This document shows, one piece after another, positions 10,092 to 28,359 of a stretch of DNA of 28,359 nt. Position numbers and translations under genes: made by a program. The DNA comes from a virus. The number at the start of each line of letters is the position of its first letter. Position 1 is the stretch's first letter. The notes under the pieces were generated by a model. That model ran no database searches and was not told the DNA's origin. It worked only from the letters and a program-made list of their open reading frames with translations. The stretch is taken from the UHGV virus genome UHGV-0141068. One strand, 5' to 3'.

Positions 10092-10198
10092 TCGTTTATA
10101 TCTTGAAGGTGAATACTTATTGTCTTATCTATCCACGGGAAACATTAAGATTATTACACCCGTTAGTTGGGAAATAAAACAAAATGCAGGTGGTTTAT

Positions 10199-11152: not shown

Positions 11153-11612
11153 TTACCACCCCGCCAGCCTCTTTGAATCGGGCAATCAGGTCACCGATTT
11201 TATGTTCATACTGACCGTAACCAGCGCCCGGCAGTGAAGCCCAGATATTGCTGCAACGATCGATAGCCTGACGAATATCGCCGCGATCAATCATCGGTAA
11301 AGCGCCACGCTCTTTAATCTGCTGCAATGCCACAGCATCCTGGCTTTTTGGAGAGAAGTCTTTCAGCCCAAGCTGCTTGCGGTAAGCATCCCACCAGCGT
11401 GAAAGAAGTTGATAACGGCCTGCAGCTGTTGATTTGAGTTTGGGGTTTAGCGTGACAAGTTTGCGAGGGTGATCGGAGTAATCAGTGAAGAGTTCACCAC
11501 CGACAATAATATCATAACCGTGGTTACGTGTCGGTTGTCGCCCGTTATCCGTTCCTTCTGACCATGCCACCATATCGAGGAAAGCTTTACGCTGAGGATT
11601 AAGATTTTGCAT
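11136..11612 (-). CDS. R: lambda R-type endolysin (lytic transglycosylase)
   Basis: 158 aa; NQRKAFLDM.AWSEGTDNGRQ.TRNHGYDVIVGGELFTDYSDHPRK region matches lambda R as recalled. Confidence 0.9.
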   Translation of the reverse strand: MQNLNPQRKAFLDMVAWSEGTDNGRQPTRNHGYDIIVGGELFTDYSDHPRKLVTLNPKLKSTAAGRYQLLSRWWDAYRKQLGLKDFSPKSQDAVALQQIKERGALPMIDRGDIRQAIDRCSNIWASLPGAGYGQYEHKIGDLIARFKEAGGVVNEVEL

Positions 11613-12003
11613 TTTTCACCCCTGTCAGTCGTTCCCAGAAGTACGTCAGTGCAACCGAACCCATCGCACCACTAATCCCCGCTGTCGCGAGAATCATGTA
11701 AATACTGAATCCACTTTCGATGCTGATCAGGCCACCAATAACACCGGTGAATCCTGATACCACTATCTGAGCCAGAGCATTTATCCAACACCACGTTGCT
11801 TTACTCTGCTTCACATCTATCAGGTAGCGGACCAGACCGCCCCAACCTGCGATGATCAGCAAAACGAGCCAGAACGCTCCAGCAAGATTCTCTTTTTCGT
11901 GCATATGAATAGCCGCAGTTTCGCCTCCGACAGAAAATCGGAGCGTGAAATGATATGTTGATTTATTATTAATTCGAAAATTACATTCTAATTCATCAGG
12001 CAT
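11599..12003 (-). CDS. putative holin (start codon uncertain)
   Basis: Three hydrophobic helices immediately upstream of and overlapping the endolysin gene; N-terminal 33 codons are AT-rich and lack an RBS, so real start may be Met at 11904. Confidence 0.55.
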   Translation of the reverse strand: MPDELECNFRINNKSTYHFTLRFSVGGETAAIHMHEKENLAGAFWLVLLIIAGWGGLVRYLIDVKQSKATWCWINALAQIVVSGFTGVIGGLISIESGFSIYMILATAGISGAMGSVALTYFWERLTGVKNAKS

Positions 12004-12021
12004 TGATGATTTTATAATAAT

Positions 12022-12044
12022 AAAGGCCGTTCGTTACGGCCTTT
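12022..12044. terminator. hairpin with flanking A/T runs (possible bidirectional terminator)
   Basis: AAAGGCCG-TTCGTTA-CGGCCTTT between the acidic moron gene and the holin ORF. Confidence 0.45.
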
Positions 12045-12055
12045 ATTATTGATAT

Positions 12056-12391
12056 TTATTTTACATCCCAAGGTAGTTCCTCAAGAGAGAAGACTAATTC
12101 ATTATCAATGATTTCGTATTCTGCATAACCTTCAACCTCTCCTGAGAAGTTATTGTCAACGCATCCTTCATAATAGCTATATGGTGCTATAAAGTGAAAC
12201 CCATATTCATCTATCTCTGTGATTTCAAAATTGTAGTAATCGTAAGAATATCGAATATCATCATCAGAAATAGAACTAAGTACATAGTTATTAAATTTAT
12301 CGGAATGCTTAACGATAAGCTCTGACAACGCGTCAAGATTCTCTGGAGAGATATTTCCTAACGGTAATCTGTACTCAACGGCATTAATCAT
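12056..12391 (-). CDS. highly acidic Tyr-rich hypothetical protein (moron between Q and holin)
   Basis: 111 aa, about 24 Asp/Glu versus 5 Lys/Arg, 12 Tyr; strong RBS AAGGAGG; AT-rich; first gene downstream of tR'. Confidence 0.55.
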   Translation of the reverse strand: MINAVEYRLPLGNISPENLDALSELIVKHSDKFNNYVLSSISDDDIRYSYDYYNFEITEIDEYGFHFIAPYSYYEGCVDNNFSGEVEGYAEYEIIDNELVFSLEELPWDVK

Positions 12392-12443
12392 ACAACCTCC
12401 TTTTTAACTGATATGAGGTTATATAATGTGTTTCAGTACAAGT

Positions 12444-12470
12444 AAATAAAAACCCGCTCAACAGCGGGTT
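12444..12470 (-). terminator. tR'-like terminator of the late leader
   Basis: AACCCGCT-CAAC-AGCGGGTT hairpin followed on minus strand by UUUUUAUUU. Confidence 0.65.
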
Positions 12471-12516
12471 CGTGAAAATTATCAACGGCAGACATACAAA
12501 GCCCATCGTTGAGAAA

Positions 12517-12545
12517 ATCTTATCCATATTTTTTGAAAAATGCAA
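12517..12545 (-). promoter_or_regulatory. PR'-like late promoter
   Basis: Minus-strand TTGCAT (-35, 12545..12540), 17-bp spacer, TAAGAT (-10, 12522..12517), located between Q stop and the tR' hairpin. Confidence 0.5.
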
Positions 12546-12576
12546 GCTTCATGTCGCCATCTTCGGCGAAAATCAC

Positions 12577-13329
12577 TTATCTCGTCACCTTTCTCAATTG
12601 CGTTTCAGCATATGCTTCTTCCTGCCAGCACTTTGTTACTAGTTTATCAATTACGTCTGCATATCCTTTGTACCACTGATAATCAGTCAGGTCTGGAACC
12701 AGCTTCTGGACATGACGTCGTGCCAGTGTAGTTGGTAAACGGCTAAACCGGTTTCCATTGCAACGCCCACAAATCTTATAAACAGGCGTGCCATGAAGCC
12801 GGGTCCTTTTTTCATCCAGGACAATACCTTTACCCTTACACCCTCTGCACGCTGTGCTGACTTCTCCCTTACCATGACAATGCTGACATAGTTCCTTCAC
12901 CCACTCTTCCTTGATAACAGATTCCCCGCTTCTGGAGTGTTTCACCACCTCGCGCAATACATTATGAAATCCAGTACCAGCACAATGCTCACAGCGAGCC
13001 TTACTTGCCGCAGACCTGGAATAATCAGCAAAGGCAAAATTCACAAGGTAAGGAATGATCTGTAGCCGGGTTTCTTCACTCAATTTATTCAATGTCGGGT
13101 TATCCAGTGCCATCGCGTAATTGAGCAGACCTTCAATCGCAAACTGAGGATCCTGAACACCAACTTTTGCCAGGAATAAGGCAAACCCAAGCGGTGCTTT
13201 CGACTGCACCATCCCCTGCGCAGCCATCACATCCGTAATCGTTAAACCACCAGAGCCTGTCGCCGGTGCGTCATCGCTCAGTTTTGGAGATTTCGGGGAG
13301 TAATATTTCGGTAAGGCTTCAAGGTTCAT
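12577..13329 (-). CDS. late antiterminator Q (Qin QuuQ-like type)
   Basis: 250 aa with four CxxCxGxG zinc-finger-like repeats; followed by promoter and terminator as expected for Q. Confidence 0.7.
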   Translation of the reverse strand: MNLEALPKYYSPKSPKLSDDAPATGSGGLTITDVMAAQGMVQSKAPLGFALFLAKVGVQDPQFAIEGLLNYAMALDNPTLNKLSEETRLQIIPYLVNFAFADYSRSAASKARCEHCAGTGFHNVLREVVKHSRSGESVIKEEWVKELCQHCHGKGEVSTACRGCKGKGIVLDEKRTRLHGTPVYKICGRCNGNRFSRLPTTLARRHVQKLVPDLTDYQWYKGYADVIDKLVTKCWQEEAYAETQLRKVTR

Positions 13330-13342
13330 GCTCGTTCTCCAC

Positions 13343-14338
13343 TTACGCCAGTACGCCTATTGCCAGCGCACGATCGATAAAACGAAATATCAGCTCCAGC
13401 TGGGAACCATACTTCTCTTCAAATGCCACGGTATCCGCATGCAGCTCGTCGTGATGCTTTCTGCACAAAGGCAACACAAAGAGGTCATGCGCTTTTGTAC
13501 CCATTCCCCCCTGACCGTGGCCTATCAGGTGGTGGGGATCATCAGCAGGCTTTCCACAACATGCACACGGCTGTGTCTTAACCCAGCGTGTGTACTTTTC
13601 ATTAACCCAGCGGCGACGTTTTGGGCGTAACATAAAAGACTCCGGCGACTCCGGATCCACTTTCAGCGCCAGCACCTTTTTCACCTTATCCTGGATGATG
13701 CTGGTGGCAGGAACCGAAGGCACAAGGTCACTTTCCCGGGTGACAGACGGCACAACAGGCTTCGGTAATCTCAGTGCCTTACGGGCTGCACTTTCCGGTA
13801 AGGCATCCGCCAGGTCATTACGAATCAGCCACCAGCACAGTTCCGGCATTGTCACAACGTGACTATCATCAAAACCGAGATCCCGACGCACAACAGACAA
13901 CACCCAGCGGGCACAGTTATCCGTTGCCATTGATTCCAGCCGTTCCGTGAACTGATCGCGCAGCTGGTTATCGCAGTGCCAGCACAGACGGATTGCGCCC
14001 GGCGCGTGTCGCATTGTTGTCATGTTCTCGCTGTGCCAGTCGGAATGAGGCCACTGGCAGCCTTTTTCACGAAGTAACCAGCTTTCAAGACATTCCACGC
14101 CACCAGCACGACGGATCACTGCCTCATTGCGGAACACGGCCCGAACGTCAGGATCATCCGCCAGCGGTTGTGATGCCGCCGGAACAGCACCACTGGCGAA
14201 AGATGAATAACGTTCCGGCTCAGGCTCCAGCAGGACACGCCCCTGCATAAACAGGGGCATCAGCTCTGAACCTGGTCTGAACAATACGATCCCCATACGC
14301 GGGGCAATTTCAGGGGTCAGTAGTGCTCTCACGGTCAC
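13343..14338 (-). CDS. DUF968-family prophage protein (YdfU-like)
   Basis: 331 aa with C-terminal Cys/His cluster (CACCGKP...HHLIGHG...CRKHH); adjacent to Q as in Qin-type prophages. Confidence 0.6.
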   Translation of the reverse strand: MTVRALLTPEIAPRMGIVLFRPGSELMPLFMQGRVLLEPEPERYSSFASGAVPAASQPLADDPDVRAVFRNEAVIRRAGGVECLESWLLREKGCQWPHSDWHSENMTTMRHAPGAIRLCWHCDNQLRDQFTERLESMATDNCARWVLSVVRRDLGFDDSHVVTMPELCWWLIRNDLADALPESAARKALRLPKPVVPSVTRESDLVPSVPATSIIQDKVKKVLALKVDPESPESFMLRPKRRRWVNEKYTRWVKTQPCACCGKPADDPHHLIGHGQGGMGTKAHDLFVLPLCRKHHDELHADTVAFEEKYGSQLELIFRFIDRALAIGVLA

Positions 14339-14339
14339 C

Positions 14340-15137
14340 TCAATGAACGGTATCGAGCAGCTTTAACAGCTCAGGGAATCGGGATTCGAAGAAATGCGGC
14401 TGCGTCTCACGCGGATTTGCGGGACTGGTGATATTCTTGCCGAACATGCAGCCTTTCGCTGTCAGCGACCAGAATTTTTTGATGTTGTTAATCGCTGTAC
14501 GGCTGTATCGTTCGCGCTGTTCGACGATCCCCAGCTTCGCCATCTGGTGATATGCCTGATTAGCCGTAAGGCGGATACCATACTGCTTCAGCAGTGCACT
14601 CAGTGACAGCGTGGGGCGGCTTGAGCCATCAGGCGCGTCAGCAGGAGCATCAATGGCATAGCGCGGTGCCAGATTCGGTAAGCCAACAGCCTCCTGAAGT
14701 TTCTGACAGGCTCCAAGCACTGAAGAGTTAGACAGATTTAACTCCCGGCGCATAAAGTCCAGCAGAATCACACCAGCCTGCATCTTGTCAGCAGCCTGTC
14801 CGGATAATTTTTCCGGTGCGCTGGTTACCATGTCGAAAGTACGGATCACCTTCAGATGGAATGACGGGCTGATCCACATTGCATAGGCATACACCAGTTC
14901 TTTGCAGACATACGTCCCCTGGTTATTTCCGCCACGAATAACGTTAACTGGCTCTATATTGACCGAGTTGCAAATCTGCAACTCGCTTATTAAACGCTCA
15001 GTTTGCTCATTGCGGAGCCAGAATGCAGGCTTATGCTTATCCAGAGAACCGGCAGCCCTGTGCAGATCGTTCAGGCTGTAACGCCCATAAGCATCACGAC
15101 GAACTTCAATACCATCAATGACCATCAGATTATTCAT
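14340..15137 (-). CDS. KilA-N domain protein
   Basis: N-terminal IDGIEVRRDAYGRYSLNDLHRAAG region typical of KilA-N; 265 aa. Confidence 0.65.
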   Translation of the reverse strand: MNNLMVIDGIEVRRDAYGRYSLNDLHRAAGSLDKHKPAFWLRNEQTERLISELQICNSVNIEPVNVIRGGNNQGTYVCKELVYAYAMWISPSFHLKVIRTFDMVTSAPEKLSGQAADKMQAGVILLDFMRRELNLSNSSVLGACQKLQEAVGLPNLAPRYAIDAPADAPDGSSRPTLSLSALLKQYGIRLTANQAYHQMAKLGIVEQRERYSRTAINNIKKFWSLTAKGCMFGKNITSPANPRETQPHFFESRFPELLKLLDTVH

Positions 15138-15156
15138 ACTTCGTTTCTCCTCTTAA

Positions 15157-15546
15157 TCAGGCGGCTGCACCCGCCGTTTTCTCGTACTTACTGATAGTGA
15201 TCTCGACCTTCCCTTCCGGGATAACCGGTCCCCACTCCACCAGCATTCTTTTCACCTGACTGTCGTCTTCCCACACACCCGCGTGGGTCAGGGCGTCAAA
15301 CAGCGCCTTGTTATAGTTGTCCAGATCGCGGATCCGGTTATCCGGAGGAAACAACACGATCTCCACTGAAGCAGGTGCCGACGTTGGTTTTGGCAGACGA
15401 CGTAACTGCTCAACTATTGCTGCACACGCCGCGCTCTGGAATTTGCGCCCCGCCGCGCTTATCAGGCTCTTACCTGCAAACGCCCCTTTGTTGGGGTGTC
15501 GCCAGTACGTGTTCACGCTGGGCGGGAAAGGCAGAATCAGCTTCAT
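15157..15546 (-). CDS. rusA: Holliday junction resolvase RusA
   Basis: 129 aa, MKLILPFPPSVNTYWR N-terminus and acidic catalytic region characteristic of RusA. Confidence 0.8.
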   Translation of the reverse strand: MKLILPFPPSVNTYWRHPNKGAFAGKSLISAAGRKFQSAACAAIVEQLRRLPKPTSAPASVEIVLFPPDNRIRDLDNYNKALFDALTHAGVWEDDSQVKRMLVEWGPVIPEGKVEITISKYEKTAGAAA

Positions 15547-15869
15547 ACTTTCAGACCCCTCTCATGTAACCAGTGGGCTGCACGCAGCCTGGCGTTTTCC
15601 TCACCGGCAAGCAGTGAGCGGATAATCCCGACCGCCTCGCTGTCGTCGTCCTTCACCGCGGTATGAAGCGTTATCCCCCGGGCCACACCACGCTTTATCG
15701 TGATGACGCCTTTTTTCTCCAGTGCGCGAAGATGCTCCACCGCTGCATTCACTGAACGATATCCCAGCATGGTTGCCACCTCCTGATTGGTTGGCGGAAA
15801 GCCACGCTCTTTCTGGTAAGAAATCAGCATATCCAGCACCTGCTGCTGGCATTGAGTTAACGTCGTCAT
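15543..15869 (-). CDS. LexA DNA-binding-domain protein lacking the S24 peptidase domain
   Basis: 108 aa; LTQCQQQVLDMLISY...PPTNQEVATMLGYRSVNAAVEHLRALEKKGVI mirrors the LexA N-terminal winged helix; no Ser/Lys protease domain follows. Confidence 0.65.
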   Translation of the reverse strand: MTTLTQCQQQVLDMLISYQKERGFPPTNQEVATMLGYRSVNAAVEHLRALEKKGVITIKRGVARGITLHTAVKDDDSEAVGIIRSLLAGEENARLRAAHWLHERGLKV

Positions 15870-16519
15870 GCCGCCATCTCCCTGACCAGTTTTTCCGCCT
15901 GCTGGCGAACCTGCGCCAGAAAGGCCTCACCACATGCCTCAAGTTCATCGCGCCCGATGTAGCTGATTGCCGGTCCCTTCCAGGTCTTGTCGAAAACAGC
16001 AATAGCACCAGCGAAGAAAGCGCCTGTCGGTACCTGCTTCTCGTCTTTCGGGATAAACCAGACAGGCAGTTCAAAACCAATACGCCCGCGAATAAAAGCA
16101 ATATGATCTGCATTTTCCGGCCACCACACTTCGCTGGTGGCAGCTTTGATCAGGAAAACATAGCGCCCGCCTTTATCACGCATGGCACTGGCATGCTTCA
16201 TGATGTAACGCATGCCGGTGATGTATTGCCCCTCATGCTGACTGGCGCGGCTGTATGGGGGATTACCAAAGGCAGCACCTTTAAGCTCCGCAAGACGTTC
16301 TGACCAGTCATGCGCCAGCGCGTTGTCTTCCGCCGTGTAATACGCGGCACATTTGGCGTTATCACCGTCAGTGAACAGATCCAGAACAAACGGGCCAAAC
16401 AGGGTGTTAATTCCCCAGAAAATGTTGTCCGGCGTGCGCCACTGATCGCCCACTTCCTTCAGTTCATGGGCTGGTTTGTTCCGCAGTTCCACCAGCGCCT
16501 GGCAATATTTATTACTCAT
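15866..16519 (-). CDS. phage DNA N6-adenine methyltransferase
   Basis: NPPY motif; start assigned to ATG at 16519 overlapping upstream stop (TAATG) rather than ORF-track start 16552. Confidence 0.8.
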   Translation of the reverse strand: MSNKYCQALVELRNKPAHELKEVGDQWRTPDNIFWGINTLFGPFVLDLFTDGDNAKCAAYYTAEDNALAHDWSERLAELKGAAFGNPPYSRASQHEGQYITGMRYIMKHASAMRDKGGRYVFLIKAATSEVWWPENADHIAFIRGRIGFELPVWFIPKDEKQVPTGAFFAGAIAVFDKTWKGPAISYIGRDELEACGEAFLAQVRQQAEKLVREMAA

Positions 16520-17013
16520 TAAGCCCCCACGTAATTCCCTGACAGATACCACTCTTCACCCGATGCAGCGCGCTTGCTGCTTTTCCGTAAGCACCGCTCA
16601 CGACGCGCCAGAAAATTGTTTCGCTCTTGCTGGGAGTGGCTTTCACGGAATGCCGCCATCCACACCGTTGCAGCACGACGGTATAAGCCCCTGGACTCCA
16701 GTTCTTCCGCCTGGCGGGTCAGGCACAAAATCTCCCGCGGGTCGTTAGTGCCGACATAGAAATTGCGCACAGGTCTGGTTTCACGAACTGGTTGCGGTTC
16801 CGCCTCCTGCGCTCTCTCAGTCAGGCGCGGGAAATGTCTGCGTGTATCCCCTTCACAACGGTGAGCCACACGACCACTCTGACGTAACTTGCTTGCTGAC
16901 TGCAGAACGCGCTGCCGTGAGTAACCTGCAAAAGCATCCGCAATGTCTCCGGAAGTACACCCCGGATGGGCTTCAATGTATTTCTGAACTTCATTCAAAA
17001 GACTCATGATCAC
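16519..17013 (-). CDS. PerC-like transcriptional regulator domain protein
   Basis: C-terminal LESRGLYRRAATVWMAA resembles the PerC family signature; N-terminal part HTH-like. Confidence 0.45.
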   Translation of the reverse strand: MIMSLLNEVQKYIEAHPGCTSGDIADAFAGYSRQRVLQSASKLRQSGRVAHRCEGDTRRHFPRLTERAQEAEPQPVRETRPVRNFYVGTNDPREILCLTRQAEELESRGLYRRAATVWMAAFRESHSQQERNNFLARRERCLRKSSKRAASGEEWYLSGNYVGA

Positions 17014-17951
17014 CCCCTGAATCCTGCCGGGATCTGGCTGTAGTCCACGTTGTCGTAACTGGCTTTGAAGTACGGGTCTTCGCGTTTTTCGGTGTACGTG
17101 CTGACGGACGGCGATAAGCGCAGGGAAAGCTCATCCCATTTTTCCCGCAGCTTCGACGGGCTGAGCACGTTACGGCACCAGAACGGATCGCGGCTGACGC
17201 GGCTGTACATCTCGCAGATTTGTTTGTGAGTACGACCATCCTGCACACACATCAGGCGAATTTCGTTTGCCCAGGCTGTCCAGTTCGGTTCTTTGGGACG
17301 AACCACCTCGCCGTCACATTCGGCGGCCTGCTCGTACAGGGCGATGATTTTTTTCCAGAGCCACTGTGCGCAGGTCAAATCATCCTGCGTTCCCCACTGG
17401 CGCTTTTTAGGGCTGAATACAACCGCATCAGGATGGCGAGTTAAAAACTCCTGTTCAGCCGTCTGCGTGTCCGGTTGCGAAGCGTCCGGACGAGAAGTTT
17501 TTTTATCTGACGGATCATGTTTTGATTTTACTGACGGATCCCCGCCAGATTCTGACGGGTGAAAACCCGCTTTTTTGCCAGATTTCGACGCATCAAATTT
17601 TGACGGGTCAGATTTTGATGCGTCAGATTTTGACGGGTCAGAATCTGACAGTTGAGAAAATGCCGCTGCCTGAAGCTTCGCAACGTTAAGCTGATAAACA
17701 TTCGACGCATTGCGGTTACCCTGGCGACGCGCCTTACGCGTTAACCAGCCTTCTGCTTCCAGCCGTGCGATAGCCGTTCTGACGGTACTCATCCCCGCGC
17801 CAATCTGACGGGCAATGGTTTCAATTGATGGCCAGCACACACCTTCGTCATTACTGAAATCAGCCAGGCGGGCCATAATTGCCACGCTGGATAATTTCAT
17901 GCCTGACGCAGCGCAACCATCCCATACATAGCCGGTTAATTTAGTGCTCAT
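17010..17951 (-). CDS. phage replication initiation protein (N-terminal HTH, DnaT-like C-terminal region)
   Basis: 313 aa; winged-helix N-terminus, low-complexity SKSD/DPSK centre encoded by iterons, conserved C-terminal region. Confidence 0.65.
   Translation of the reverse strand: MSTKLTGYVWDGCAASGMKLSSVAIMARLADFSNDEGVCWPSIETIARQIGAGMSTVRTAIARLEAEGWLTRKARRQGNRNASNVYQLNVAKLQAAAFSQLSDSDPSKSDASKSDPSKFDASKSGKKAGFHPSESGGDPSVKSKHDPSDKKTSRPDASQPDTQTAEQEFLTRHPDAVVFSPKKRQWGTQDDLTCAQWLWKKIIALYEQAAECDGEVVRPKEPNWTAWANEIRLMCVQDGRTHKQICEMYSRVSRDPFWCRNVLSPSKLREKWDELSLRLSPSVSTYTEKREDPYFKASYDNVDYSQIPAGFRG
17500..17655. repeat. iteron array, putative prophage replication origin
   Basis: Eight copies of an AGATTTTGACGGGTC-like unit; last four are tandem at 15-bp period (17595-17654); located inside the replication gene. 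Confidence 0.6.
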
Positions 17952-18299
17952 GACCGACCTCTATTTCCCTGAATTTACGACGAAACTGTTCGAGCGGGCT
18001 GAAGCACTCATGCTCATAGTCTTCGCGGAGGTAGATAACCCGTTGTGTTTCCGGCTCCCAACGAATGACTCTGACGGGTACTCCGTAGTGATCTTTGAAC
18101 CAGCGGTTAACTTGTCGCAAAGGACTGTCTCCTTCTGCCGGTTGAAATCACCCACAGCCCACTCTGCAAAGCTGTGGGTTACAATTTCCCTGTCACCTGG
18201 TACATTCACTGCATAGCAATATTCCACCTTCGCTTTTCCACCCGGTACAGGAAGCGCAATCAGTTGCGAGCGACGGTAGTGTGTTGTTAAACTGTTCAT
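17941..18299 (-). pseudogene. hypothetical gene with apparent -1 frame disruption (or two overlapping small genes)
   Basis: Protein-like N-terminus in one frame (18299 down to about 18130), protein-like C-terminus ([37 protein letters not shown]...) in the -1 frame ending at 17941; frames switch near 18118-18150. Confidence 0.35.
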
Positions 18300-18865
18300 G
18301 CGTTAGTTTCTCCACAACCAGAAGCAATCGACGCCACGACGCCCGGAGCTGCACACTCGCGGGCGTCATTACTTTCTGAAATGCAAAAAATTTTGTAGAC
18401 AAGTGCTGCATGCTCCTGCAGCTTCGAAATTGAGAGATACAGCTCGTCGTTAATTGCTGTCTTCTCATGCGGTTCCACTACACCGTCTTCGATTGCTGAA
18501 CGAATCTGTTTTGAATAACTGCCGATCTGTTCAATGACTTCCAGCAGACGCTGGTTAATATCGGCGTTGTCCACATCCTCGACGTCAGGAAGAGACACAA
18601 AGACGCCATTTGCAGACTGCGCCACAGCATCAGCAATGAAGTGAGTGCCACCAGCACGCTGTAAAACCATTGCCCATCCCAGCGGGAAAATCTGATCGCC
18701 ATCTGCACGAAGGCGGTTGAATAAAGCGTTTTCTGTTACATCGAGCCAGTCAGCCGCTTCAGCGTAACCACCCGGCAACGCCGCGATAGTTTTTCTGACA
18801 GCTTTCACGTACCACTCAGGCTGTTTTTCTATTTTCCAGTGATGCTTACCCACGATTAGCCTCAT
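18296..18865 (-). CDS. CII-like regulatory protein (CP76 type)
   Basis: 189 aa; [34 protein letters not shown] region resembles CII-type HTH; sits directly after cro-like gene. Confidence 0.45.
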
Positions 18866-18896
18866 CGTTCTGTGGTTAAAAATTGAAAGTGTTCTG

Positions 18897-19097
18897 CTAA
18901 TCTTTCGGATAGATATCCGGTCTTAAGTCAGATTTCGTAATTGCACCTGACGTGCATTGCTCAAGTTTTTTAGCCAGCACAAAACTGGCTTTTTTATAGC
19001 CATTGAAAACCAGCCGTAAGTAGCCAGGTGTTGAGCCAACTTTTCCGGCCAACTCGCCCTGCTGTTCTTTGGTTAAAGAGTCCCAATACGCTTTCAT
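18897..19097 (-). CDS. Cro/DicC-like repressor
   Basis: 67 aa from internal ATG 19097 with GGAGG RBS; the longer ORF-track version (to 19400) would overlap cI and the operators; architecture resembles DicC. Confidence 0.65.
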   Translation of the reverse strand: MKAYWDSLTKEQQGELAGKVGSTPGYLRLVFNGYKKASFVLAKKLEQCTSGAITKSDLRPDIYPKD

Positions 19098-19187
19098 ACA
19101 ATATGTACCTCCGATGTACATATTACATGATTGAAATGAACCTTCAAGATACTTGTACCTTAACGGTACAAGGGTTTTAATTTCGTT
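19098..19187. promoter_or_regulatory. OR-type operator/promoter region between cro-like and cI genes
   Basis: Two inverted repeats with GTAC cores: ATATGTAC-N7-GTACATAT (19101-19123) and CTTGTACC-N5-GGTACAAG (19152-19172); minus-strand PR candidate -35 TTGAAG (19147..19142), -10 TAATAT (19125..19120). Confidence 0.65.
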
Positions 19188-19862
19188 ATGAAAACAATCC
19201 ATGACATCCGGCGGTCTAACGCCAGAAAACTGAGAGATGGTGTTGGCGGGAATTCTTCCTTTGCCACTATGATTGATCGCGAGCCAACCCAGACCAGCAG
19301 GTTTATGGGAGATGGTGCTACTAAAAATATCGGTGACAGCATGGCACGACACATCGAAAAATGTTTCGACCTGCCTGTCGGATGGCTCGATCAAGAACAC
19401 CAGACAACGAACATCACAAAAAAACCTGATGTTTCAATCACTAATAAACAAATCACATTAGTCCCTGTCATATCATGGGTACAGGCCGGAGCATGGAAAG
19501 AAGTTGGATATTCTGAGGTTGATTTGAGCACAGCAGAAACGTATCCCTGCCCTGTCCCCTGTGGGGAAATGACTTATATCTTGCGGGTGATAGGTGATTC
19601 AATGATTGATGAGTACCGCCCGGGAGACATGATTTTTGTCGATCCTGAAGTACCTGCCTGCCACGGTGACGACGTTATTGCATTGATGCACGATACAGGT
19701 GAAACCACCTTCAAAAGGTTGATAGAAGATGGGACACAGCGTTATCTCAAAGCGTTAAACCCAAACTGGCCTGAGCCTTACATTAAGATCAACGGTAATT
19801 GCTCTATAATTGGTACAGTGATTTTCTCAGGAAAACCAAGAAGATACAAAATCAAAGCCTAA
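19188..19862 (+). CDS. CI-type prophage repressor with LexA/S24-like autocleavage domain
   Basis: 224 aa; C-terminal half (ISWVQAGAW, GDSM, FKRL, LNPNWP) is the S24 peptidase fold shared with lambda CI; no SD upstream, consistent with leaderless translation. Confidence 0.85.
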   Translation: MKTIHDIRRSNARKLRDGVGGNSSFATMIDREPTQTSRFMGDGATKNIGDSMARHIEKCFDLPVGWLDQEHQTTNITKKPDVSITNKQITLVPVISWVQAGAWKEVGYSEVDLSTAETYPCPVPCGEMTYILRVIGDSMIDEYRPGDMIFVDPEVPACHGDDVIALMHDTGETTFKRLIEDGTQRYLKALNPNWPEPYIKINGNCSIIGTVIFSGKPRRYKIKA

Positions 19863-19874
19863 TCAATGTTTATG

Positions 19875-19897
19875 AACCTGCTTCGGCAGGTTTTTTT
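19875..19897 (+). terminator. rho-independent terminator after cI
   Basis: AACCTGC-TTCG-GCAGGTT hairpin followed by T7. Confidence 0.75.
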
Positions 19898-19901
19898 ATA
19901 C

Positions 19902-19934
19902 TTGACAATGTACCTTTGAGATACATAATGTACC
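19902..19934 (+). promoter_or_regulatory. PL-like early-left promoter with operator half-sites
   Basis: TTGACA (19902-19907), 16-bp spacer, CATAAT (19924-19929); ATGTACC repeated at 19908-19914 and 19928-19934, same core as OR sites. Confidence 0.6.
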
Positions 19935-20034
19935 CAAGAGAAACAACAAACAGGCAGGACGTCCACGAAGTAGCCGCCTGGGGCATATGAAGTCCAAGAT
20001 GATTCGTTAGCAACAAAACGCCCATAGGACGCTT

Positions 20035-20053
20035 CGCTCTTTAACAATTTGAA
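20035..20053 (+). promoter_or_regulatory. boxA-like antitermination element (nutL-like)
   Basis: CGCTCTTTAACAATTTGAA, near-identical to the rrn boxA core GCTCTTTAACAATTT as recalled, about 110 nt downstream of PL. Confidence 0.55.
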
Positions 20054-20351
20054 TATTTTCAGCGTCAATGATCTGTTTAGCTCCCTACAAGTAAATGTAG
20101 CGTAGCACCATGATAAATCCTGCTAGTGTTTAGTTAAAAATCGCGCGAGAGCAAGAACGACGTGAGGGCAGGCAATATTGATAGTGTTATTGCTATTAGT
20201 TTATCAAAAATATTTAGACGACCCAGATGAATATTTTTAATACATACTCCCCCTAATTTAACAGGAGTAAATGTTGATGAATAACGAGACATCTATACTC
20301 AACAATTGTATGATATGAACAATTATATAACATAATGTAGGAAAAATAAAA

Positions 20352-20948
20352 ATGGATTGGCATGACCTTATATCAAAGGTAATTATCGGACTTGTTACAG
20401 GCTCAATCGCAGCTTACTTAACTGCGCGATATGCACTCGGCCGTTATTATAAAGAAAAATGGTGGGACAAAAGAATAGATTTGTATACGCAATTAGTTGA
20501 CTGTGTTTATCTTCTAAAAAACACAGCTGACTATTGGTATAAACATGAGTTACATCACGCTTCACAATTCCCAACCTACTTTAGTTACAAATCAAAAGAA
20601 GAAAATGAAATCCTTAGCAAATCTTTCTCTAATGAGCTTGAAAAACTCAGTAGAATAGGTGAGCTATCTTCATTATTCTTAACAGAAGAGTGTGGGGATA
20701 AAATCCGTTCATTCATTGAAAATGAAGAAAATCTATTTATACAATGGGAGTTTGATAGTATAGAGTTGATAGATGCCCACAAGTCAAGACTTGATAAATT
20801 AAAAGTATTACTAGACGATATTATCTCTGAAGCAAAGAGAGAGCTTAAGGTCAATAAAAAACATAACAGCCTAAAGAATATAAAGTGGTCCATAACTATG
20901 CCAGACCAAAAAAATGATGAGCCAATTAATTATTACGACAATCATTAA
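20352..20948 (+). CDS. membrane-anchored hypothetical protein (moron in early-left region)
   Basis: 198 aa, single N-terminal hydrophobic helix (VIIGLVTGSIAAYLTARYALG) then charged helical domain; markedly AT-rich; own terminator. Confidence 0.6.
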   Translation: MDWHDLISKVIIGLVTGSIAAYLTARYALGRYYKEKWWDKRIDLYTQLVDCVYLLKNTADYWYKHELHHASQFPTYFSYKSKEENEILSKSFSNELEKLSRIGELSSLFLTEECGDKIRSFIENEENLFIQWEFDSIELIDAHKSRLDKLKVLLDDIISEAKRELKVNKKHNSLKNIKWSITMPDQKNDEPINYYDNH

Positions 20949-20958
20949 AACACTTTAG

Positions 20959-20980
20959 AACCCGCTGGGCGGGTTTTATT
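20959..20980 (+). terminator. rho-independent terminator
   Basis: AACCCGC-TGG-GCGGGTT followed by TTTTATT, 11 nt after the stop codon. Confidence 0.7.
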
Positions 20981-21135
20981 CAAATATACTTTGCACATCA
21001 CAAATAAAACTATAACGTCCTTCTTCTTTTCCTAATATCTTATATCTACTTATTTATAAGCGGCTTACAGATCTTCAACAGATAAACCTAATGAAGGCGA
21101 CAATGTTCTGATGAATAGCCACCTTTTTACTCAAC

Positions 21136-21258
21136 TGAAAGCGCGTTCTGTCCCTTGTCATTAAGTGCCAGTTCGTTAAGTCCAAAACCTCCGGAACGCG
21201 CTTTCAATTGAGTGGGGAAAATAACTGGCGATGGCAGCCGCCCGTTGCACTAAGTGCC
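21136..21258. promoter_or_regulatory. structured intergenic element of unknown function
   Basis: 12-13 bp inverted repeat GAAAGCGCGTTC / GAACGCGCTTTC (21137-21148, 21194-21205) enclosing TTAAGTGCC-type direct repeats (21159-21169, 21176-21183, 21248-21258). Confidence 0.4.
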
Positions 21259-21370
21259 TCTGGATGGGGCATTTACTGAAACGAAACCAAAACTTTTAAT
21301 CGCCTTATGGCGAGGGATTCGTGCAACCAAAAATCGTGCGGTGCAGCGCACCAATTAAGGAGAACTAACG

Positions 21371-21907
21371 ATGAGTTTTATCCAGACTCTTACCGGTAAG
21401 AAGTTCAATTATATCAACTCCACCATTGACGATATTTATATCGAGGATATCGCCGGTGCGCTTTCAAATATCTGCCGCTTCGCGGGACACTTGCCGGATT
21501 TTTACAGCGTGGCGCAGCATTCCGTTCTGTGCAGTCAACTTGTGGCGCCAGAGTTCGCCTTTGAAGCGTTAATGCATGATGCAACAGAAGCGTATTGTCA
21601 GGACATCCCCGCGCAACTGAAACGCCTTCTTCCTGACTATAAACGGATGGAAGAAAAAATAGACGCCGTAATCCGTGAGAAATACGGGTTACCCCCGGTT
21701 ATGAGCACGCCCGTGAAATATGCCGATCTCATCATGCTGGCAACCGAACGCCGCGATCTCGGGCTTGATGATGGCTCTTTCTGGCCTCTACTGGAAGGTA
21801 TCCCAGCAACAGAGATGTTCAAAGTTATTCCACTGTCGCCAGGCCATGCCTACGGGATGTTTATGGAACGTTTTAACGAGTTATCGGAGTTACGCAAATG
21901 CGCATGA
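21371..21907 (+). CDS. HD-domain phosphohydrolase (YfbR/YfdR-like)
   Basis: 178 aa with H..H (VAQHSV) and HD (MHDATEAY) metal-binding motifs; strong RBS AAGGAGA. Confidence 0.65.
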   Translation: MSFIQTLTGKKFNYINSTIDDIYIEDIAGALSNICRFAGHLPDFYSVAQHSVLCSQLVAPEFAFEALMHDATEAYCQDIPAQLKRLLPDYKRMEEKIDAVIREKYGLPPVMSTPVKYADLIMLATERRDLGLDDGSFWPLLEGIPATEMFKVIPLSPGHAYGMFMERFNELSELRKCA

Positions 21908-22260
21908 ATGTTTTCGAAATGGAAGGGTTTCTTCGCGGGAAATGTGTACCGCGAGATCTGAAAGTGAATGAAACGGATGCTGAATACCTGGTGCGTAAAT
22001 TCGATGCGCTTGAAGCTAAATGTGCGGCACTGGAAAACAAAGTAATACCAGTGTCAACTGAACTGCCACCAGCAAATGAAAGTGTTTTGTTATTCGATGC
22101 TAACGGAGAAGGCTGGCTAATTGGCTGGCGTTCTCTCTGGTACACCTGGGGACAAAAAGAAACCGGAGACTGGCAGTGGACATTTCAGGTCGGGGACCTT
22201 GAAAACGTCAATATCACTCACTGGGCAGTAATGCCAAAAGCACCGGAGGCTGGAGCATAA
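21898..22260 (+). CDS. DUF551-like phage protein
   Basis: 120 aa, Trp-rich C-terminus with THWAVMP motif; overlaps HD gene end. Confidence 0.5.
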   Translation: MRMNVFEMEGFLRGKCVPRDLKVNETDAEYLVRKFDALEAKCAALENKVIPVSTELPPANESVLLFDANGEGWLIGWRSLWYTWGQKETGDWQWTFQVGDLENVNITHWAVMPKAPEAGA

Positions 22261-22565
22261 TGACCACTTTTACCGACAAAGAACTGATTAAAGAAATCAA
22301 AGAGCGTATCAGCAGCCTTGACGTGCGAGACGATATTGAGCGCCGTGCTTATGAAATCGCACTCCTATCTCTGGAAGTAGAGCCAGATGAACGCGAATCC
22401 TATGAATTATTTATGGAAAAACGTTTCGGTGGCTTAGTAGATAGTCGGAGAGCAAAAAACGGCGATAACGAATACATGGCATGGGATATGACTCTCGGTT
22501 GGATCGTCTGGCAACAACGAGCTGGCATTCATTTTTCAACAATATCACAGCAAGAGGTGAAATAA
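22260..22565 (+). CDS. hypothetical protein
   Basis: 101-aa ORF, ATGA overlap with upstream gene, TAATG overlap with xis. Confidence 0.5.
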   Translation: MTTFTDKELIKEIKERISSLDVRDDIERRAYEIALLSLEVEPDERESYELFMEKRFGGLVDSRRAKNGDNEYMAWDMTLGWIVWQQRAGIHFSTISQQEVK

Positions 22566-22915
22566 TGGAACCATACAGCCTCACGCTAGATGAGGCCTGT
22601 CATTTTCTCAAGATATCCAGACCGACTGCCATTAACTGGATACGCACAGGGCGTCTGCAGGCAACACGCAAAGATCCCACTAAGAATAAATCTCCTTACC
22701 TCACAACACGACAAGCCTGCATTGCGGCGCTTCAGTCTCCGCTGCATACTGTCCAGGTGAGCGCGGGTGATGGCATAACAGAGGAAAGAAAATGTCACTC
22801 TTCCGCAGAGGTGAAATATGGTACGCCAGTTTCACATTGCCGAACGGTAAAAGATTTAAACAGTCTCTTGGAACAAAGGACAAAAGGCAGGCGACAGAAC
22901 TCCATGACAAGCTAA
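22565..22915 (+). CDS. xis: excisionase (P22 Xis-like, AlpA-type HTH)
   Basis: 116 aa from ATG 22565; [36 protein letters not shown]; 3' end overlaps integrase start. Confidence 0.8.
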
Positions 22916-23955
22916 AGGCTGAAGCATGGCGGGTCAGCAAACTTGGTGAAATTCCTGATATAACGTTCGAGGAAGCGTGTGTCAGGTGGCTTGAAGAGAA
23001 AGCACATAAAAAATCACTGGACGATGACAAAAGCCGGATCGGATTCTGGCTTCAACATTTCGCAGGAATGCAACTAAGAGACATTACTGAATCAAAAATT
23101 TATTCAGCAATGCAGAAAATGACGAACCGGCGTCATGAGGAAAACTGGAAACTCAGGGCAGAAGCATGCAGAAAAAAAGGGAAACCTGTTCCAGAATACA
23201 CGCCAAAACCAGCGTCCGTTGCAACGAAGGCTACGCATCTTTCATTTATAAAGGCCCTGCTAAGAGCCGCAGAGCGTGAATGGAAAATGCTGGATAAGGC
23301 ACCAATTATTAAAGTGCCTCAACCAAAGAATAAACGGATCCGCTGGCTGGAGCCTCATGAAGCACAAAGGCTGATTGATGAATGTCCGGAGCCATTAAAG
23401 TCTGTTGTTGAATTTGCACTTGCAACAGGCTTAAGACGCTCGAACATCATCAACCTTGAATGGCAACAAATAGACATGCAGCGCCGGGTGGCATGGATAA
23501 ACCCGGAAGAGAGTAAATCAAACCGCGCAATTGGCGTTGCGCTGAATGATACTGCATGTCGCGTATTGAAAAAACAAATCGGGAATCATCACCGTTGGGT
23601 ATTTGTGTATAAGGAAAGCTGTACCAAACCAGACGGAACGAAAGCGCCAACAGTCAGGAAGATGCGGTATGACGCAAACATAGCCTGGAAAGCGGCGCTG
23701 AGACGAGCAGGTATTGATGATTTCAGATTTCACGACTTGAGACACACCTGGGCAAGTTGGCTGGTTCAAGCCGGAGTCCCGTTATCAGTGTTACAGGAAA
23801 TGGGAGGCTGGGAGTCTATCGAAATGGTTCGTCGATATGCTCACCTCGCACCTAATCACCTTACCGAACACGCACGGCAAATAGACTCGATTCTGAACCC
23901 ATCGGTCCCAAATTTGTCCCAGTCAAGAAATAAGGAAGGTACTAATGATGTGTAA
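22792..23955 (+). CDS. int: tyrosine integrase, P22-type
   Basis: 387 aa; [15 protein letters not shown]-terminus and C-terminal R...HxxR...Y catalytic region (HDLRHTWAS...MVRRYAHL); adjacent to tRNA-Thr-derived att core. Confidence 0.9.
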
Positions 23956-23969
23956 CTTATTGATTTAAA

Positions 23970-24021
23970 TGGTGCCGATAATAGGAGTCGAACCTACGAC
24001 CTTCGCATTACGAATGCGAAG
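23970..24021 (-). other. attachment-site core: 3' fragment of a tRNA-Thr(CGU) gene (not a complete tRNA)
   Basis: Reverse complement reads anticodon stem-loop (TCGCA-TTCGTAA-TGCGA, anticodon CGT), T-arm GGTTCGACTCC and acceptor 3' strand ending CCA; no D-arm or 5' acceptor strand upstream. Confidence 0.75.
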
Positions 24022-24103
24022 TTTTTATATTTTAACTGCTTGAACAACCATCAGAAATCACAAATTTATCATTTTAAATCATAATATTAAAACAAAAAAC
24101 CTG

Positions 24104-24129
24104 TTGATGTAAATTGATGAGTGTTGATG
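24104..24129 (+). repeat. three TTGATG direct repeats at 10-bp phasing upstream of integrase
   Basis: TTGATG at 24104, 24114, 24124; further TTGAT/ATCAA copies at 25508-25537 just after the integrase stop. Confidence 0.5.
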
Positions 24130-24201
24130 TTTATCCTTTCAATTTACTTACACCAGCCGTTACATTACTGTAAACCGTAATCCCCAACAGGAACCCTAAA
24201 A

Positions 24202-25521
24202 ATGGCGCTTTCAAGACAAAAACTAACCTTCGAACGAATTCGAAGATTTACTTTACCTGAAGGGAAAAACCAAGTTTTCCTTTGGGATACGGACGTAACA
24301 AGCTTGGCATGTCGAGCAACTCGTGGAGCAAAAGCCTTTGTATTCCAAAGCCTGTATGCGGGAAAAACCCTTCGCATGACCATTGGCAACATTAACGATT
24401 GGAGGATTGATGATGCGAGGGCCGAAGCCAGGCGACTGCAAACATTAATCGATACTGGGATAGATCCGCGTATAGCTAAGGCGGAAAAAATTGCTGAAGC
24501 GGAATCACAGCAGGCTGAATCTCGTAAAACGAAGGCAACCTTTTCAAGCGCTTGGGAAGATTATCTTGATGAATTGAGAACCGGAATCAGCGCAAAAACT
24601 AAACGCCCCTACTCTGCACGCTACATTGCCGATCACGTTAACTTGTCCAGTCGTGGAGGCGAAAGTAAAAAAAGAGGCCGGGGCCCAACCTCACCTGGGC
24701 CACTGGCTAGCCTGCTCGACCGACCATTATCAGAACTAACACCAGAGAACATTGCCGAATGGCTAAGTACAGAGAGACAAAATCGGCCTACCGTCACTGC
24801 TCATGCCTACCGTCTGTTGCGTGCATTCATCAAATGGGCTAATTACCAGAAAAAATATCAGGGAATAATCGATGGCGATCTTGCACAAGATCATAACGTG
24901 AGAAAAATGGTTCCAATATCAGCGAGCAAAGCGGGAGATTGCTTACAAAAAGAACAGCTCAAAAGCTGGTTCAGTGCCGTGCGTAGCCTCAATAATCCCA
25001 TTGCATCAGCCTATCTCCAAGTGCTTTTGCTCACCGGTGCACGGCGTGAAGAAATTTCCTCACTTCGCTGGTCTGACATAGATTTCAAATGGTCAAGCAT
25101 GAGAATTAAAGACAAGATCGAAGGCGAGCGAATTATCCCCCTCACTCCCTATGTTTCTGACTTGTTACGCTCACTGATGGAGATCCCCAATCGTGGTACA
25201 AACGAGGAGAATTGGGTTTTCAGAAGTAACAGCAAAAGTGGCAAAATTATTGAACCGCGTTCAGCACATAATAGAGCATTAACTCGCGCGGAGTTACCAC
25301 ATATCAGCTTGCACGGATTGCGCCGTAGTTTTGGGACCCTCGCTGAATGGGTCGAAGTACCAACAGGTATTGTTGCGCAGATTATGGGCCATAAGCCTAG
25401 CGCTCTTGCTGAAAAGCACTATCGCCGCCGTCCATTAGATTTGCTAAGAAAATGGCATGAAAAAGTTGAATTATGGATCTTAGAAGAAGCAAAAATAAAA
25501 AACAACGTTGATAAGCGTTGA
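24202..25521 (+). CDS. tyrosine integrase, P4 type
   Basis: 439 aa; N-terminal arm-binding-like region, C-terminal catalytic R..HGLRRS..Y region (LHGLRRSFGT, HY near the end). Confidence 0.85.
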   Translation: MALSRQKLTFERIRRFTLPEGKNQVFLWDTDVTSLACRATRGAKAFVFQSLYAGKTLRMTIGNINDWRIDDARAEARRLQTLIDTGIDPRIAKAEKIAEAESQQAESRKTKATFSSAWEDYLDELRTGISAKTKRPYSARYIADHVNLSSRGGESKKRGRGPTSPGPLASLLDRPLSELTPENIAEWLSTERQNRPTVTAHAYRLLRAFIKWANYQKKYQGIIDGDLAQDHNVRKMVPISASKAGDCLQKEQLKSWFSAVRSLNNPIASAYLQVLLLTGARREEISSLRWSDIDFKWSSMRIKDKIEGERIIPLTPYVSDLLRSLMEIPNRGTNEENWVFRSNSKSGKIIEPRSAHNRALTRAELPHISLHGLRRSFGTLAEWVEVPTGIVAQIMGHKPSALAEKHYRRRPLDLLRKWHEKVELWILEEAKIKNNVDKR

Positions 25522-25635
25522 TTTTATCAAATATCAACAACTTACATAAAATCACATGTGTTGACAGAAATTTTTTTTCAGTTATCTTTTATTACTGCTA
25601 ACTACATTCACTCACTAAGCAGGAGATTAACTACA

Positions 25636-26061
25636 GTGACTAACCCAATAACTGTATCAAGAGAAGACCGAAGTGCGGAAATCAGAGCGAGATGGGGTTT
25701 ACATCCGACTAAAAACAAAAGTTCTAATTTTTGGGAAACAACAATTCAGCGTTTTAATAATAGTAGTACTGACCGAATACTACCTCTTTGGCACCGTGTT
25801 TCAAAACTTTTAGTTGCTATTAGGAATGTAGTCAATACTATAACATGCCTTTTTCCACCAAAGGGGAATACTTCCCGCTCACGCCGAAGTTCAACAACGT
25901 CATCAAAAAACTCATCATCATCTTCATCGGATGGTAGTAGTAGCGACCCCGATCCCGATAGAGACCCCATATTCACCCCTTTTCATTTCATTCTTTCATC
26001 TCTGTTAAAAACAATGATCGTCTTATTTGCCCACATATCAAATGTTGGGGTGATGAAATGA
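25636..26061 (+). CDS. Ser-rich hypothetical protein with hydrophobic C-terminus
   Basis: GTG at 25636 with AGGAG RBS 10 nt upstream; low-complexity S/D stretch; stop overlaps AlpA-like start; candidate -35 TTGACA at 25561. Confidence 0.35.
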   Translation: MTNPITVSREDRSAEIRARWGLHPTKNKSSNFWETTIQRFNNSSTDRILPLWHRVSKLLVAIRNVVNTITCLFPPKGNTSRSRRSSTTSSKNSSSSSSDGSSSDPDPDRDPIFTPFHFILSSLLKTMIVLFAHISNVGVMK

Positions 26062-26279
26062 GCGATATCAAACATCAAAAACCCTCTCAGTCACAACTAA
26101 TTTCTACCCGCGAGTTAGCTAATATTATTGGCTATGAAGTACAAACTATTCGAGCTTGGCTTTGCAAAGACAAACTGCCTAATGGTTTACCGCGACCGAA
26201 GAAAATTAAAAACCGACACTATTGGTCACGTAAAGACATTGATAGATACCTATTAACCTTCTCAGTATATAGTAACTAA
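26058..26279 (+). CDS. AlpA-family HTH regulator / excisionase-like
   Basis: 73 aa; LISTRELANIIGYEVQTIRAWLCKDKLP HTH typical of AlpA/Vis-type proteins. Confidence 0.7.
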   Translation: MSDIKHQKPSQSQLISTRELANIIGYEVQTIRAWLCKDKLPNGLPRPKKIKNRHYWSRKDIDRYLLTFSVYSN

Positions 26280-26290
26280 TAGAGGCCTCC

Positions 26291-26316
26291 CCCGGCTATT
26301 CTAAAGAATAGCCGGG
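26291..26316 (+). other. perfect 11-bp palindrome (terminator-like hairpin or operator)
   Basis: CCCGGCTATTC-TAAA-GAATAGCCGGG between AlpA-like and RHH-protein genes; weak T-tract. Confidence 0.5.
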
Positions 26317-26401
26317 TTAGTTAATACAAACCTTCCATTAACAATGGGGGGAGATTAATACTATTTATCACATCTCACATTAACAAAATTCAAGGTCACA
26401 T

Positions 26402-27166
26402 ATGAAAAAACGCATCACTTTCAGCGTAAACAATAGTTCTACTATTGATGCAATTGACGACTATAGCAATGCAAAAGGATACTCCAGGTCAGAGGTGATA
26501 TCATTTTTATTAAACGCCACAGTCCCAGCATTGAATAAAATAACATCGCAATATCATATAGCTCAAACTTTGGAGTCAACATTAGGCTGTATTTTTGAAG
26601 AGAAGGTCCCGTCAATAGCACGGGGGGAGCCAAAATTAACTTACGAAGAGTTTTTTCATTCCGTCTGGAACACTCACATTCGACACCGGAACGAGGTTGT
26701 CGATCAAGATTTTTATGCGCACAAAATACCTCATGATAAGATGGGTAAGAGCGAAAAAAAATTAATTCATGAAAAGCTCTCATACATTATAAAAAGTTTC
26801 AATGTAAAAAAAGCAATTTTTATTTACACAGATCGGCGCGTGAACCACAAACATCTCATTGCAGGAGGGTTATCTAATATCATACTGATAAAGGAAACAG
26901 TCTACGATGGTTGTTTTTTTGATTTGAGCAGCATTGTGATTATGCCAATCTTTGAACTTATTACATTTGGAGTTGAAGCAGTATTGAAAAGAAATAAAAC
27001 TCCCCCTAAACAATCATGCTATTGCTGGATACCAATTTATTACACAAATGATCTAGCGGTAATGGTCCCTGTGATTGCCGAAGGCGATACACCTCAAAAG
27101 GCGATGAAAGGAGGAGATGCCATCATTATTAACCCCTTTAACGGTGAAGTAAGCCATACTTTCTGA
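26402..27166 (+). CDS. RHH-domain fusion protein of unknown function
   Basis: 254 aa; N-terminus (KKRITFSVNNSSTIDAIDDYSNAKGYSRSEVISFLL) looks like a ribbon-helix-helix; about 200-aa C-terminal domain unrecognised; AT-rich. Confidence 0.55.
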   Translation: MKKRITFSVNNSSTIDAIDDYSNAKGYSRSEVISFLLNATVPALNKITSQYHIAQTLESTLGCIFEEKVPSIARGEPKLTYEEFFHSVWNTHIRHRNEVVDQDFYAHKIPHDKMGKSEKKLIHEKLSYIIKSFNVKKAIFIYTDRRVNHKHLIAGGLSNIILIKETVYDGCFFDLSSIVIMPIFELITFGVEAVLKRNKTPPKQSCYCWIPIYYTNDLAVMVPVIAEGDTPQKAMKGGDAIIINPFNGEVSHTF

Positions 27167-27248
27167 TACCAATGTTAAGCATAACCACTTAGTTGCATAC
27201 ATCTCGACAGTATGGAGTTAGTACCTAATAGCTTGATGAGGGTAAAAG

Positions 27249-27425
27249 ATGCCTACTAACAAAGCAAAATCAAAGAAAATTCTAGGAAGGCCTGAAGGAA
27301 GTAAATATTCCCATTTAATTCAGAGTGAGAAGGCTAAGCATTACTCTCAATCCAAGGTGGCAAAGATCTTAGGAATAAGTATTTCCACGGTAAAAAGACA
27401 CTGGGATAACGGCATCTTTGGGTGA
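27249..27425 (+). CDS. small HTH protein
   Basis: 58-aa ORF below ORF-track cutoff; GAGGG RBS 7 nt upstream; SKVAKILGISISTVKRHW helix-turn-helix. Confidence 0.45.
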   Translation: MPTNKAKSKKILGRPEGSKYSHLIQSEKAKHYSQSKVAKILGISISTVKRHWDNGIFG

Positions 27426-27627
27426 TTATAATTGCAGAGTTGCTTTTTAATTATTTTACTGCATGGGTAATGGGTTGATAACAAGTTTTATTGTTGGAAA
27501 GGTATTATATAACAGTCATTACTATTAATAGTTAATTAATATAACTAACCACAGACATTCAGCTATGTCTGATCATATTACTATATACGGCTATCCAAAG
27601 CCGTAGGGCTAACGACAGGATCGAAAC

Positions 27628-28248
27628 ATGGAATTATATCATGGTTCCCATGGTGAGCATGTGCTCGCCTATAAAAAACATATTGAACGAGTCGTCAATG
27701 ATGCTATCAGTGAATTCCCCAGAACAATGGCGTTACGTGTTGATGTTCATTATCCACCCATTTTAGACAGAGGTGACACTGTTTGCTGTTTTCCTAATCT
27801 AGAGCCTGGTGCCATATCCCGTTTCCGTAATGCATTAAATGCCATGTTGGAGGCCAATGAGAGAACCAGAGCAGCTAACGGCAAAAGAATATATCCAAAC
27901 CGTGTTCGTCATGTTTGGGCACGGGAGTTTTCCGAAGAAGGAAAATGTCACTTTCACCTTGGTCTTTTTTTTAACAAAGATGCTTATTACCATTTAGGTG
28001 ATTATGAGGCTGAAAGAAATTTAAGGATGATGATTGTAAGAGCATGGTATAGCGCACTGGGATTGGAACTGGATGATTATCCGGGATTGGTTCACTACCC
28101 TGAAAATTGTCGTTATATTTTAGACGTCAATGATTTTAACTTTGAAGGAGAATACAATAAATTACTGAATCGTCTCGACTACCTAGCTAAACTCGATACA
28201 AAAGCATATGGAGATGGCGACCGTAGCTTCGGCTGCAGTCGCGGGTAA
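27628..28248 (+). CDS. YagK/YfjJ-family protein
   Basis: 206 aa; family typical of CP4-type cryptic elements, assigned from memory of conserved regions. Confidence 0.55.
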   Translation: MELYHGSHGEHVLAYKKHIERVVNDAISEFPRTMALRVDVHYPPILDRGDTVCCFPNLEPGAISRFRNALNAMLEANERTRAANGKRIYPNRVRHVWAREFSEEGKCHFHLGLFFNKDAYYHLGDYEAERNLRMMIVRAWYSALGLELDDYPGLVHYPENCRYILDVNDFNFEGEYNKLLNRLDYLAKLDTKAYGDGDRSFGCSRG

Positions 28249-28311
28249 TTTATTTTTTACAGCAATGGCCTTTCTTATGGATGGAAAGGCCAGACCTTAT
28301 ATATCAAGAAG

Positions 28312-28359
28312 CTGTCTCTTATACACATCTGACGCTGCCGACGATCTACTCTGTGTAGA
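28312..28359. other. Illumina Nextera adapter read-through (sequencing artifact, not genomic)
   Basis: CTGTCTCTTATACACATCT (Tn5 mosaic end) + GACGCTGCCGACGA + TCTACTCT (8-nt index position) + GTGTAGA (start of P5 sequence). Confidence 0.95.

Follow-up and report, generated by a model that had tools for sequence, protein, structure and literature searches.

What the last 48 nt of this sequence are, and where the genuine DNA before them stops, is the question raised by the 3′ end of the window, by which we mean the whole 28,359-nt stretch that was analysed. The answer, which we regard as virtually certain, is that an Illumina Nextera (Tn5 tagmentation) adapter was left untrimmed at positions 28312–28359 and that the window is one whole contig from a draft assembly of E. 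coli short reads. Such an adapter tail is a well-known sequencing artefact without biological novelty, and the feature matters for data hygiene only.

Composition of the 3′ terminus

On the plus strand, the final 48 nt of the window (28312–28359) read CTGTCTCTTATACACATCT, GACGCTGCCGACGA, TCTACTCT and GTGTAGA, in this order. A script comparison of this segment with the start of the reverse-complemented Nextera i5 adapter AATGATACGGCGACCACCGAGATCTACAC[AGAGTAGA]TCGTCGGCAGCGTCAGATGTGTATAAGAGACAG gave identity at 48 of 48 positions. The original prediction had placed a mosaic end, an adapter stem, an index and the start of P5 between 28312 and 28359, and all four were recovered there:

28312..28330, plus strand: Tn5 mosaic end (ME) CTGTCTCTTATACACATCT in its adapter read-through form; 19/19 exact; oligonucleotide Tn5MErev in PMC6994069 and PMC12067302
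28331..28344, plus strand: Nextera A-side (i5/Read 1) stem TCGTCGGCAGCGTC, present as its reverse complement GACGCTGCCGACGA; 14/14 exact; Tn5ME-A and i5 primer in PMC12067302
28345..28352, plus strand: i5 index slot TCTACTCT; read in reverse complement it gives AGAGTAGA, Illumina index 504; tables in PMC4712552 and PMC12067302
28353..28359, plus strand: GTGTAGA, the first 7 nt of reverse-complemented P5 GTGTAGATCTCGGTGGTCGCCGTATCATT, truncated by the contig end; exact match

The mosaic end directly adjoins the A-side stem GACGCTGCCGACGA and not the B-side stem CCGAGCCCACGAGAC, the i7-side stem being absent from the window. The index was identified as 504 by the sole match among the eight classical i5 indexes tested, and reverse-complemented P5 (GTGTAGATCTCGG...) begins right after it, with 7 nt present. 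Published sources give the sequences of Tn5MErev, Tn5ME-A and the i5 primer together with index 504 as AGAGTAGA (PMC12067302), an i5 index table that includes 504 (PMC4712552) and the mosaic-end oligonucleotides (PMC6994069).

Calculated from base composition, the 40 non-index bases would turn up by chance on one or other strand of the window with a probability of ~10^-19.3. Independently of this, the index slot matches one of 8 catalogued 8-mers (8 of the 65,536 8-mers), for which the chance is ~1e-4. Scans of the window for other adapter pieces (mosaic end or stem on both strands, the i7-side stem, the TruSeq core) found none, and the only other match in the window was a single 10-nt adapter seed at 23604, which is ascribed to chance. 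The adapter occupies the plus-strand terminus of the window and points outward. Its 48 nt, its index 504 and its terminal outward position are those of i5-side read-through in Nextera and Nextera XT libraries, from which the window differs only by the missing last 22 nt of P5, where the contig stops.

The boundary at position 28311 and its genomic surroundings

It had been claimed that the biological sequence ends at 28311, and this is borne out by 13 independent chromosomes. The last 2 kb of the window were 98.6–99.9% identical to complete E. coli chromosomes, and the full-length alignments ended at query position 2012, corresponding to window position 28311; two of them reached 28314 via a chance TG match. 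The 48-mer was absent from all 5,426 complete E. coli genomes searched. In the alignment with ECONIH4 and MS6192, identity was perfect through 28311 and the sequences were unrelated beyond. CAVP776 (NZ_CM176338.1) is collinear with the window from 56 to 28311, without gaps, and differs at 3 of 28,256 nt; after 28311 it continues with ATGGTGAGCGAT, whereas the window continues with CTGTCTCTTATA. The exact protein of the last gene is widespread (2,623 blocks), and ten further chromosomes encoding it were taken as comparators. All ten are identical to the window through 28311 and share one common continuation, ATGGTGAGCG.... The first mismatched base is 28312, and the break falls between 28311 and 28312 in 13 chromosomes (CAVP776, ECONIH4, MS6192 and the ten others). 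A search of IMG/VR for the window's own junction, CCTTATATATCAAGAAG joined to the mosaic end, returned no match.

Positions 11790, 26845 and 27975 are the sole differences from CAVP776 across the 28,256 nt. With only three differences, the contig therefore derives from a very close relative of CAVP776 (a perirectal isolate from Virginia) and of ECONIH4. The parts of the window that precede the adapter are:

1..55, minus strand: 55-nt end of IS30 (starting TGTAGATTCAATTGGTCAACG... in reverse complement, also given as TGTAGATTCAATTGGTCAACGCAACAG...), which interrupts the tail tube gene of the prophage; identity to annotated IS30 copies
56..28311, no strand assigned: genuine E. coli DNA, comprising a prophage portion that extends from tail tube to integrase and, after it, the left portion of a genomic island with P4-type integrase / YagK-YfjJ; ungapped CAVP776 alignment, annotation and Pfam
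24202-25521: P4-type integrase with Arm-DNA-bind_3 and Phage_integrase domains; Pfam
26402-27166: 254-aa protein
27628-28248: YagK/YfjJ-family protein
28304..28311, minus strand: genuine last 8 nt of a HATPase_c_4 ‘ATP-binding protein’ gene, with its stop TGA at 28306-28304; annotation of ECONIH4, MS6192 and CAVP776, translation and Pfam

The HATPase_c_4 gene encodes 218 aa in the relatives, on the minus strand, and the rest of it is missing from the window because the contig ends at 28311. An annotation touching the end of the sequence had been held to be artefactual in every case. This is correct for 28312–28359 and incorrect for 28304–28311, where the gene end is genuine.

The P4-type integrase, the 254-aa protein and the YagK/YfjJ-family protein fit the usual backbone of P4/CP4-type islands. 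Beyond 28311, the relatives carry the HATPase_c_4 gene, a Mac-domain acetyltransferase fragment and the scr sucrose regulon (kinase, porin, PTS IIBC, sucrose-6-phosphate hydrolase and LacI-type repressor). In CAVP776, a ~20-kb mosaic that includes IS elements as well as a group II intron lies further downstream, followed by a remnant chromosomal gene and corA. The adapter had also been taken to imply a contig break inside the second mobile element. The location holds, as the island continues past 28311 in each of the relatives examined, but the adapter alone does not carry this implication.

In the RefSeq annotation of relatives, the P4-type integrase gene (24127–25521) appears as a pseudogene with an internal stop. 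The window contains a 439-aa ORF from 24202 in which the Arm-DNA-bind_3 and Phage_integrase domains are intact, and the stop upstream of this ORF may represent either a real truncation or an annotation choice. Two tyrosine integrase genes are arranged in tandem on the same strand, ~250 nt apart: that of the prophage at 22792–23955 and that of the island at 24202–25521. A tRNA scan for an attachment site of the island found none in the window. The tandem integrases and the absent tRNA gene suggest that prophage and genomic island are stacked at one site, and a shared attachment sequence is expected in 23956–24201. Between the convergent YagK/YfjJ-family and HATPase_c_4 genes, an 8-bp GC-rich inverted repeat (GGCCTTTC ... 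GAAAGGCC, 9-nt loop) at 28267–28291 is kept in all relatives and lacks a T-tract. A terminator scan of 27500–28359 yielded no canonical intrinsic terminator, the 28267–28291 repeat failing the T-tract criterion.

At the 5′ end, the best genome matches begin near window position 49 and not at 1. Positions 1–55 are identical to two annotated IS30 copies through ...AATTGAATCTACA, after which the three sequences diverge, and the prophage tail tube gene resumes at 56. This gene is intact in the closest complete genomes (CAVP776 and ECONIH4). The tail tube gene of this strain therefore carries a strain-specific IS30 insertion, which the closest complete genomes lack and which probably inactivates the prophage tail. 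The 5′ contig break is an ordinary assembler break at the IS30 repeat. The IS30 overlap measures 55 nt, a length that would equal the highest k used by SPAdes on short reads by default. That one assembler k-mer rule might account for both contig ends was considered and rejected, the IS30 overlap being 55 nt and the adapter tail 48 nt. With an adapter at one end and a break at an IS30 repeat at the other, the window is therefore an entire draft contig. Both of its ends are assembly breaks and not element boundaries, and hence neither end informs on the true limits of the mobile elements.

Origin of the tail and alternative explanations

Starting from the observed identity of the tail, its exact boundary, its terminal outward position and the differing continuation in relatives, the following course of events may be proposed. 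In library preparation, a Tn5 transposome would have cut the genome, giving a fragment that ended at 28311, as Illumina chemistry suggests. Through gap-fill and indexing PCR, the fragment would then have acquired the mosaic end and A-side stem as well as i5 index 504 and P5. With an insert shorter than the read length, Read 2 would have run into the adapter; in the established Illumina geometry, the adapter appears as its reverse complement in such read-through. The reads are assumed to have been untrimmed or incompletely trimmed for adapters. We further assume that, without a better-supported genomic path, the assembler would have kept one or more adapter-carrying reads at the tip of the contig. 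The contig itself is assumed to have stopped owing to a local coverage gap. Against this account, assemblers usually clip low-coverage adapter tips, and the survival of this one is put down to the assumed gap. Tn5 target-site preference at 28303–28311 was set aside as evidence, being too weak to be diagnostic.

The first 19 nt of the tail are Tn5-derived and the region is rich in mobile elements, as would befit a real transposon end, that is, a natural Tn5/IS50 or an engineered mini-Tn5 or EZ-Tn5 insertion at the contig end. The mosaic end resembles the natural 19-bp Tn5/IS50 ends because it is an engineered hybrid of them; it has 3 mismatches to the natural IS50 outside end and 4 to the inside end. 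The window has the synthetic variant, namely the 19-mer of tagmentation kits (PMC6994069, PMC12067302), and what comes next is the A-side stem, a catalogued i5 index and the flow-cell sequence P5 rather than IS50 or a marker cassette. Moreover, no second, inverted copy of the mosaic end was found in the window, and the 48-mer is in none of the 5,426 complete E. coli genomes searched. A transposon insertion is therefore extremely improbable. For a chance resemblance of genomic DNA to the adapter, nothing speaks beyond the match itself. The 40 fixed bases (P ~1e-19), the catalogued index (~1e-4) and the homology to relatives, which breaks exactly at the first adapter base, leave this explanation with no credence.

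The untrimmed adapter, our preferred reading, could still coincide with a genuine structural difference (deletion, rearrangement or IS insertion) located just past 28311, the tip having been kept for that reason. Assemblers normally remove adapter tips where a well-covered alternative path exists; in addition, the strain already differs from its closest relatives by the IS30 insertion at the other end, and the downstream region of CAVP776 is an IS-element mosaic. However, the continuation at 28311 is the same in all 13 relatives examined, a repeat close by would be expected to put repeat sequence rather than adapter at the contig end, as happened at the 5′ end, and a plain coverage gap is simpler. 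We consider such a difference unlikely. Slightly more doubtful again is the specific form in which the tip survived since the strain lacks the relatives' continuation, a deletion, rearrangement or IS insertion after 28311 having removed or displaced the HATPase_c_4–scr sucrose cargo. The data do not call for a strain-specific breakpoint after 28311, and even if there were one, the 48 nt would still be an artefact.

The adapter in public records and its consequences

A 33-nt core consisting of mosaic end and stem was scanned in GTDB species-representative genomes and in IMG/VR, with at least 120 loci in each. Among the matches listed, 231 of 249 occurrences lay within 70 nt of a contig end (the full adapter length) and pointed outward, as compared with 1.15% expected at random. 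The organisms among these matches are unrelated and include Streptomyces, Collinsella and Frankia, archaeal and numerous other metagenome-assembled genomes, as well as viral contigs. The index slot in the other contigs listed holds members of the familiar catalogued i5 set, with 504 in 9, and the sequence following the index was consistent with P5 in 88 of 92 tails among these matches. The adapter also matched 105 records of the phage collection and 18 of the plasmid collection. The Nextera contaminant is thus widespread in public collections.

The RefSeq entry for Escherichia phage ESSI2_ev129 (NC_049394.1 / LR597640.1) contains the identical 48-mer, including index 504, at its 3′ end (30879–30926). 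There, a partial ‘hypothetical protein’ CDS, YP_009877565.1 (30741–30926, minus strand), is annotated across the adapter, which encodes 16 of its 62 codons. Tail and index are the same as in the window, but the window offers only short open frames: those entering from the 3′ end run for 3, 20 and 27 minus-strand codons, with a plus-strand open stretch of 57. Little mis-annotation is expected in the window, and anything called over 28312–28359 is spurious. As the case of NC_049394.1 illustrates, untrimmed adapter tails can seed spurious partial genes; they can also mislead analyses of prophage and island boundaries, and a shared adapter can create false similarity between unrelated records. We recommend trimming positions 28312–28359 before the sequence is annotated, compared or deposited. 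NCBI VecScreen and FCS-adaptor are designed to catch adapter contaminants of the Nextera type.

When the literature was searched for systematic surveys of assemblies that contain Nextera adapters, only an Oxford Nanopore analogue came up. This source describes synthetic library oligonucleotides that became embedded in GenBank assemblies via incomplete trimming (PMC13182109). Adapter and barcode contamination of this type belongs to the same category of problem as the tail of the window and involves another platform and other oligonucleotides.

Among the matches listed, the adapter tails have a median length of ~47 nt, with a mode of 48 in GTDB genomes and of 46 in IMG/VR. The lengths of the listed tails peak at 44–49 nt and drop sharply past 50, and a small second group, corresponding to the full adapter, is seen at 61–70 nt; the 48-nt tail of the window falls on the peak. 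Some of the contaminated contigs among these matches read GTGTAG(A) and then G-rich junk. The peak might reflect a collapse of base-call quality inside the flow-cell-grafted P5, or limits set by read length or k-mer size.

Finally, interior adapter matches of 88–94% identity, differing mostly in the index, occur in finished phage and plasmid records, for example MK373775.1 (149749–149796), MZ092003.1 (27885–27932) and NZ_CP040712.1 (254292–254339). Their interior position suggests that the records concerned contain chimeric joins or misassemblies bridged by adapter. Some of these matches lie under annotated genes, among them those for a long tail fiber, a recombinase and hypothetical proteins.
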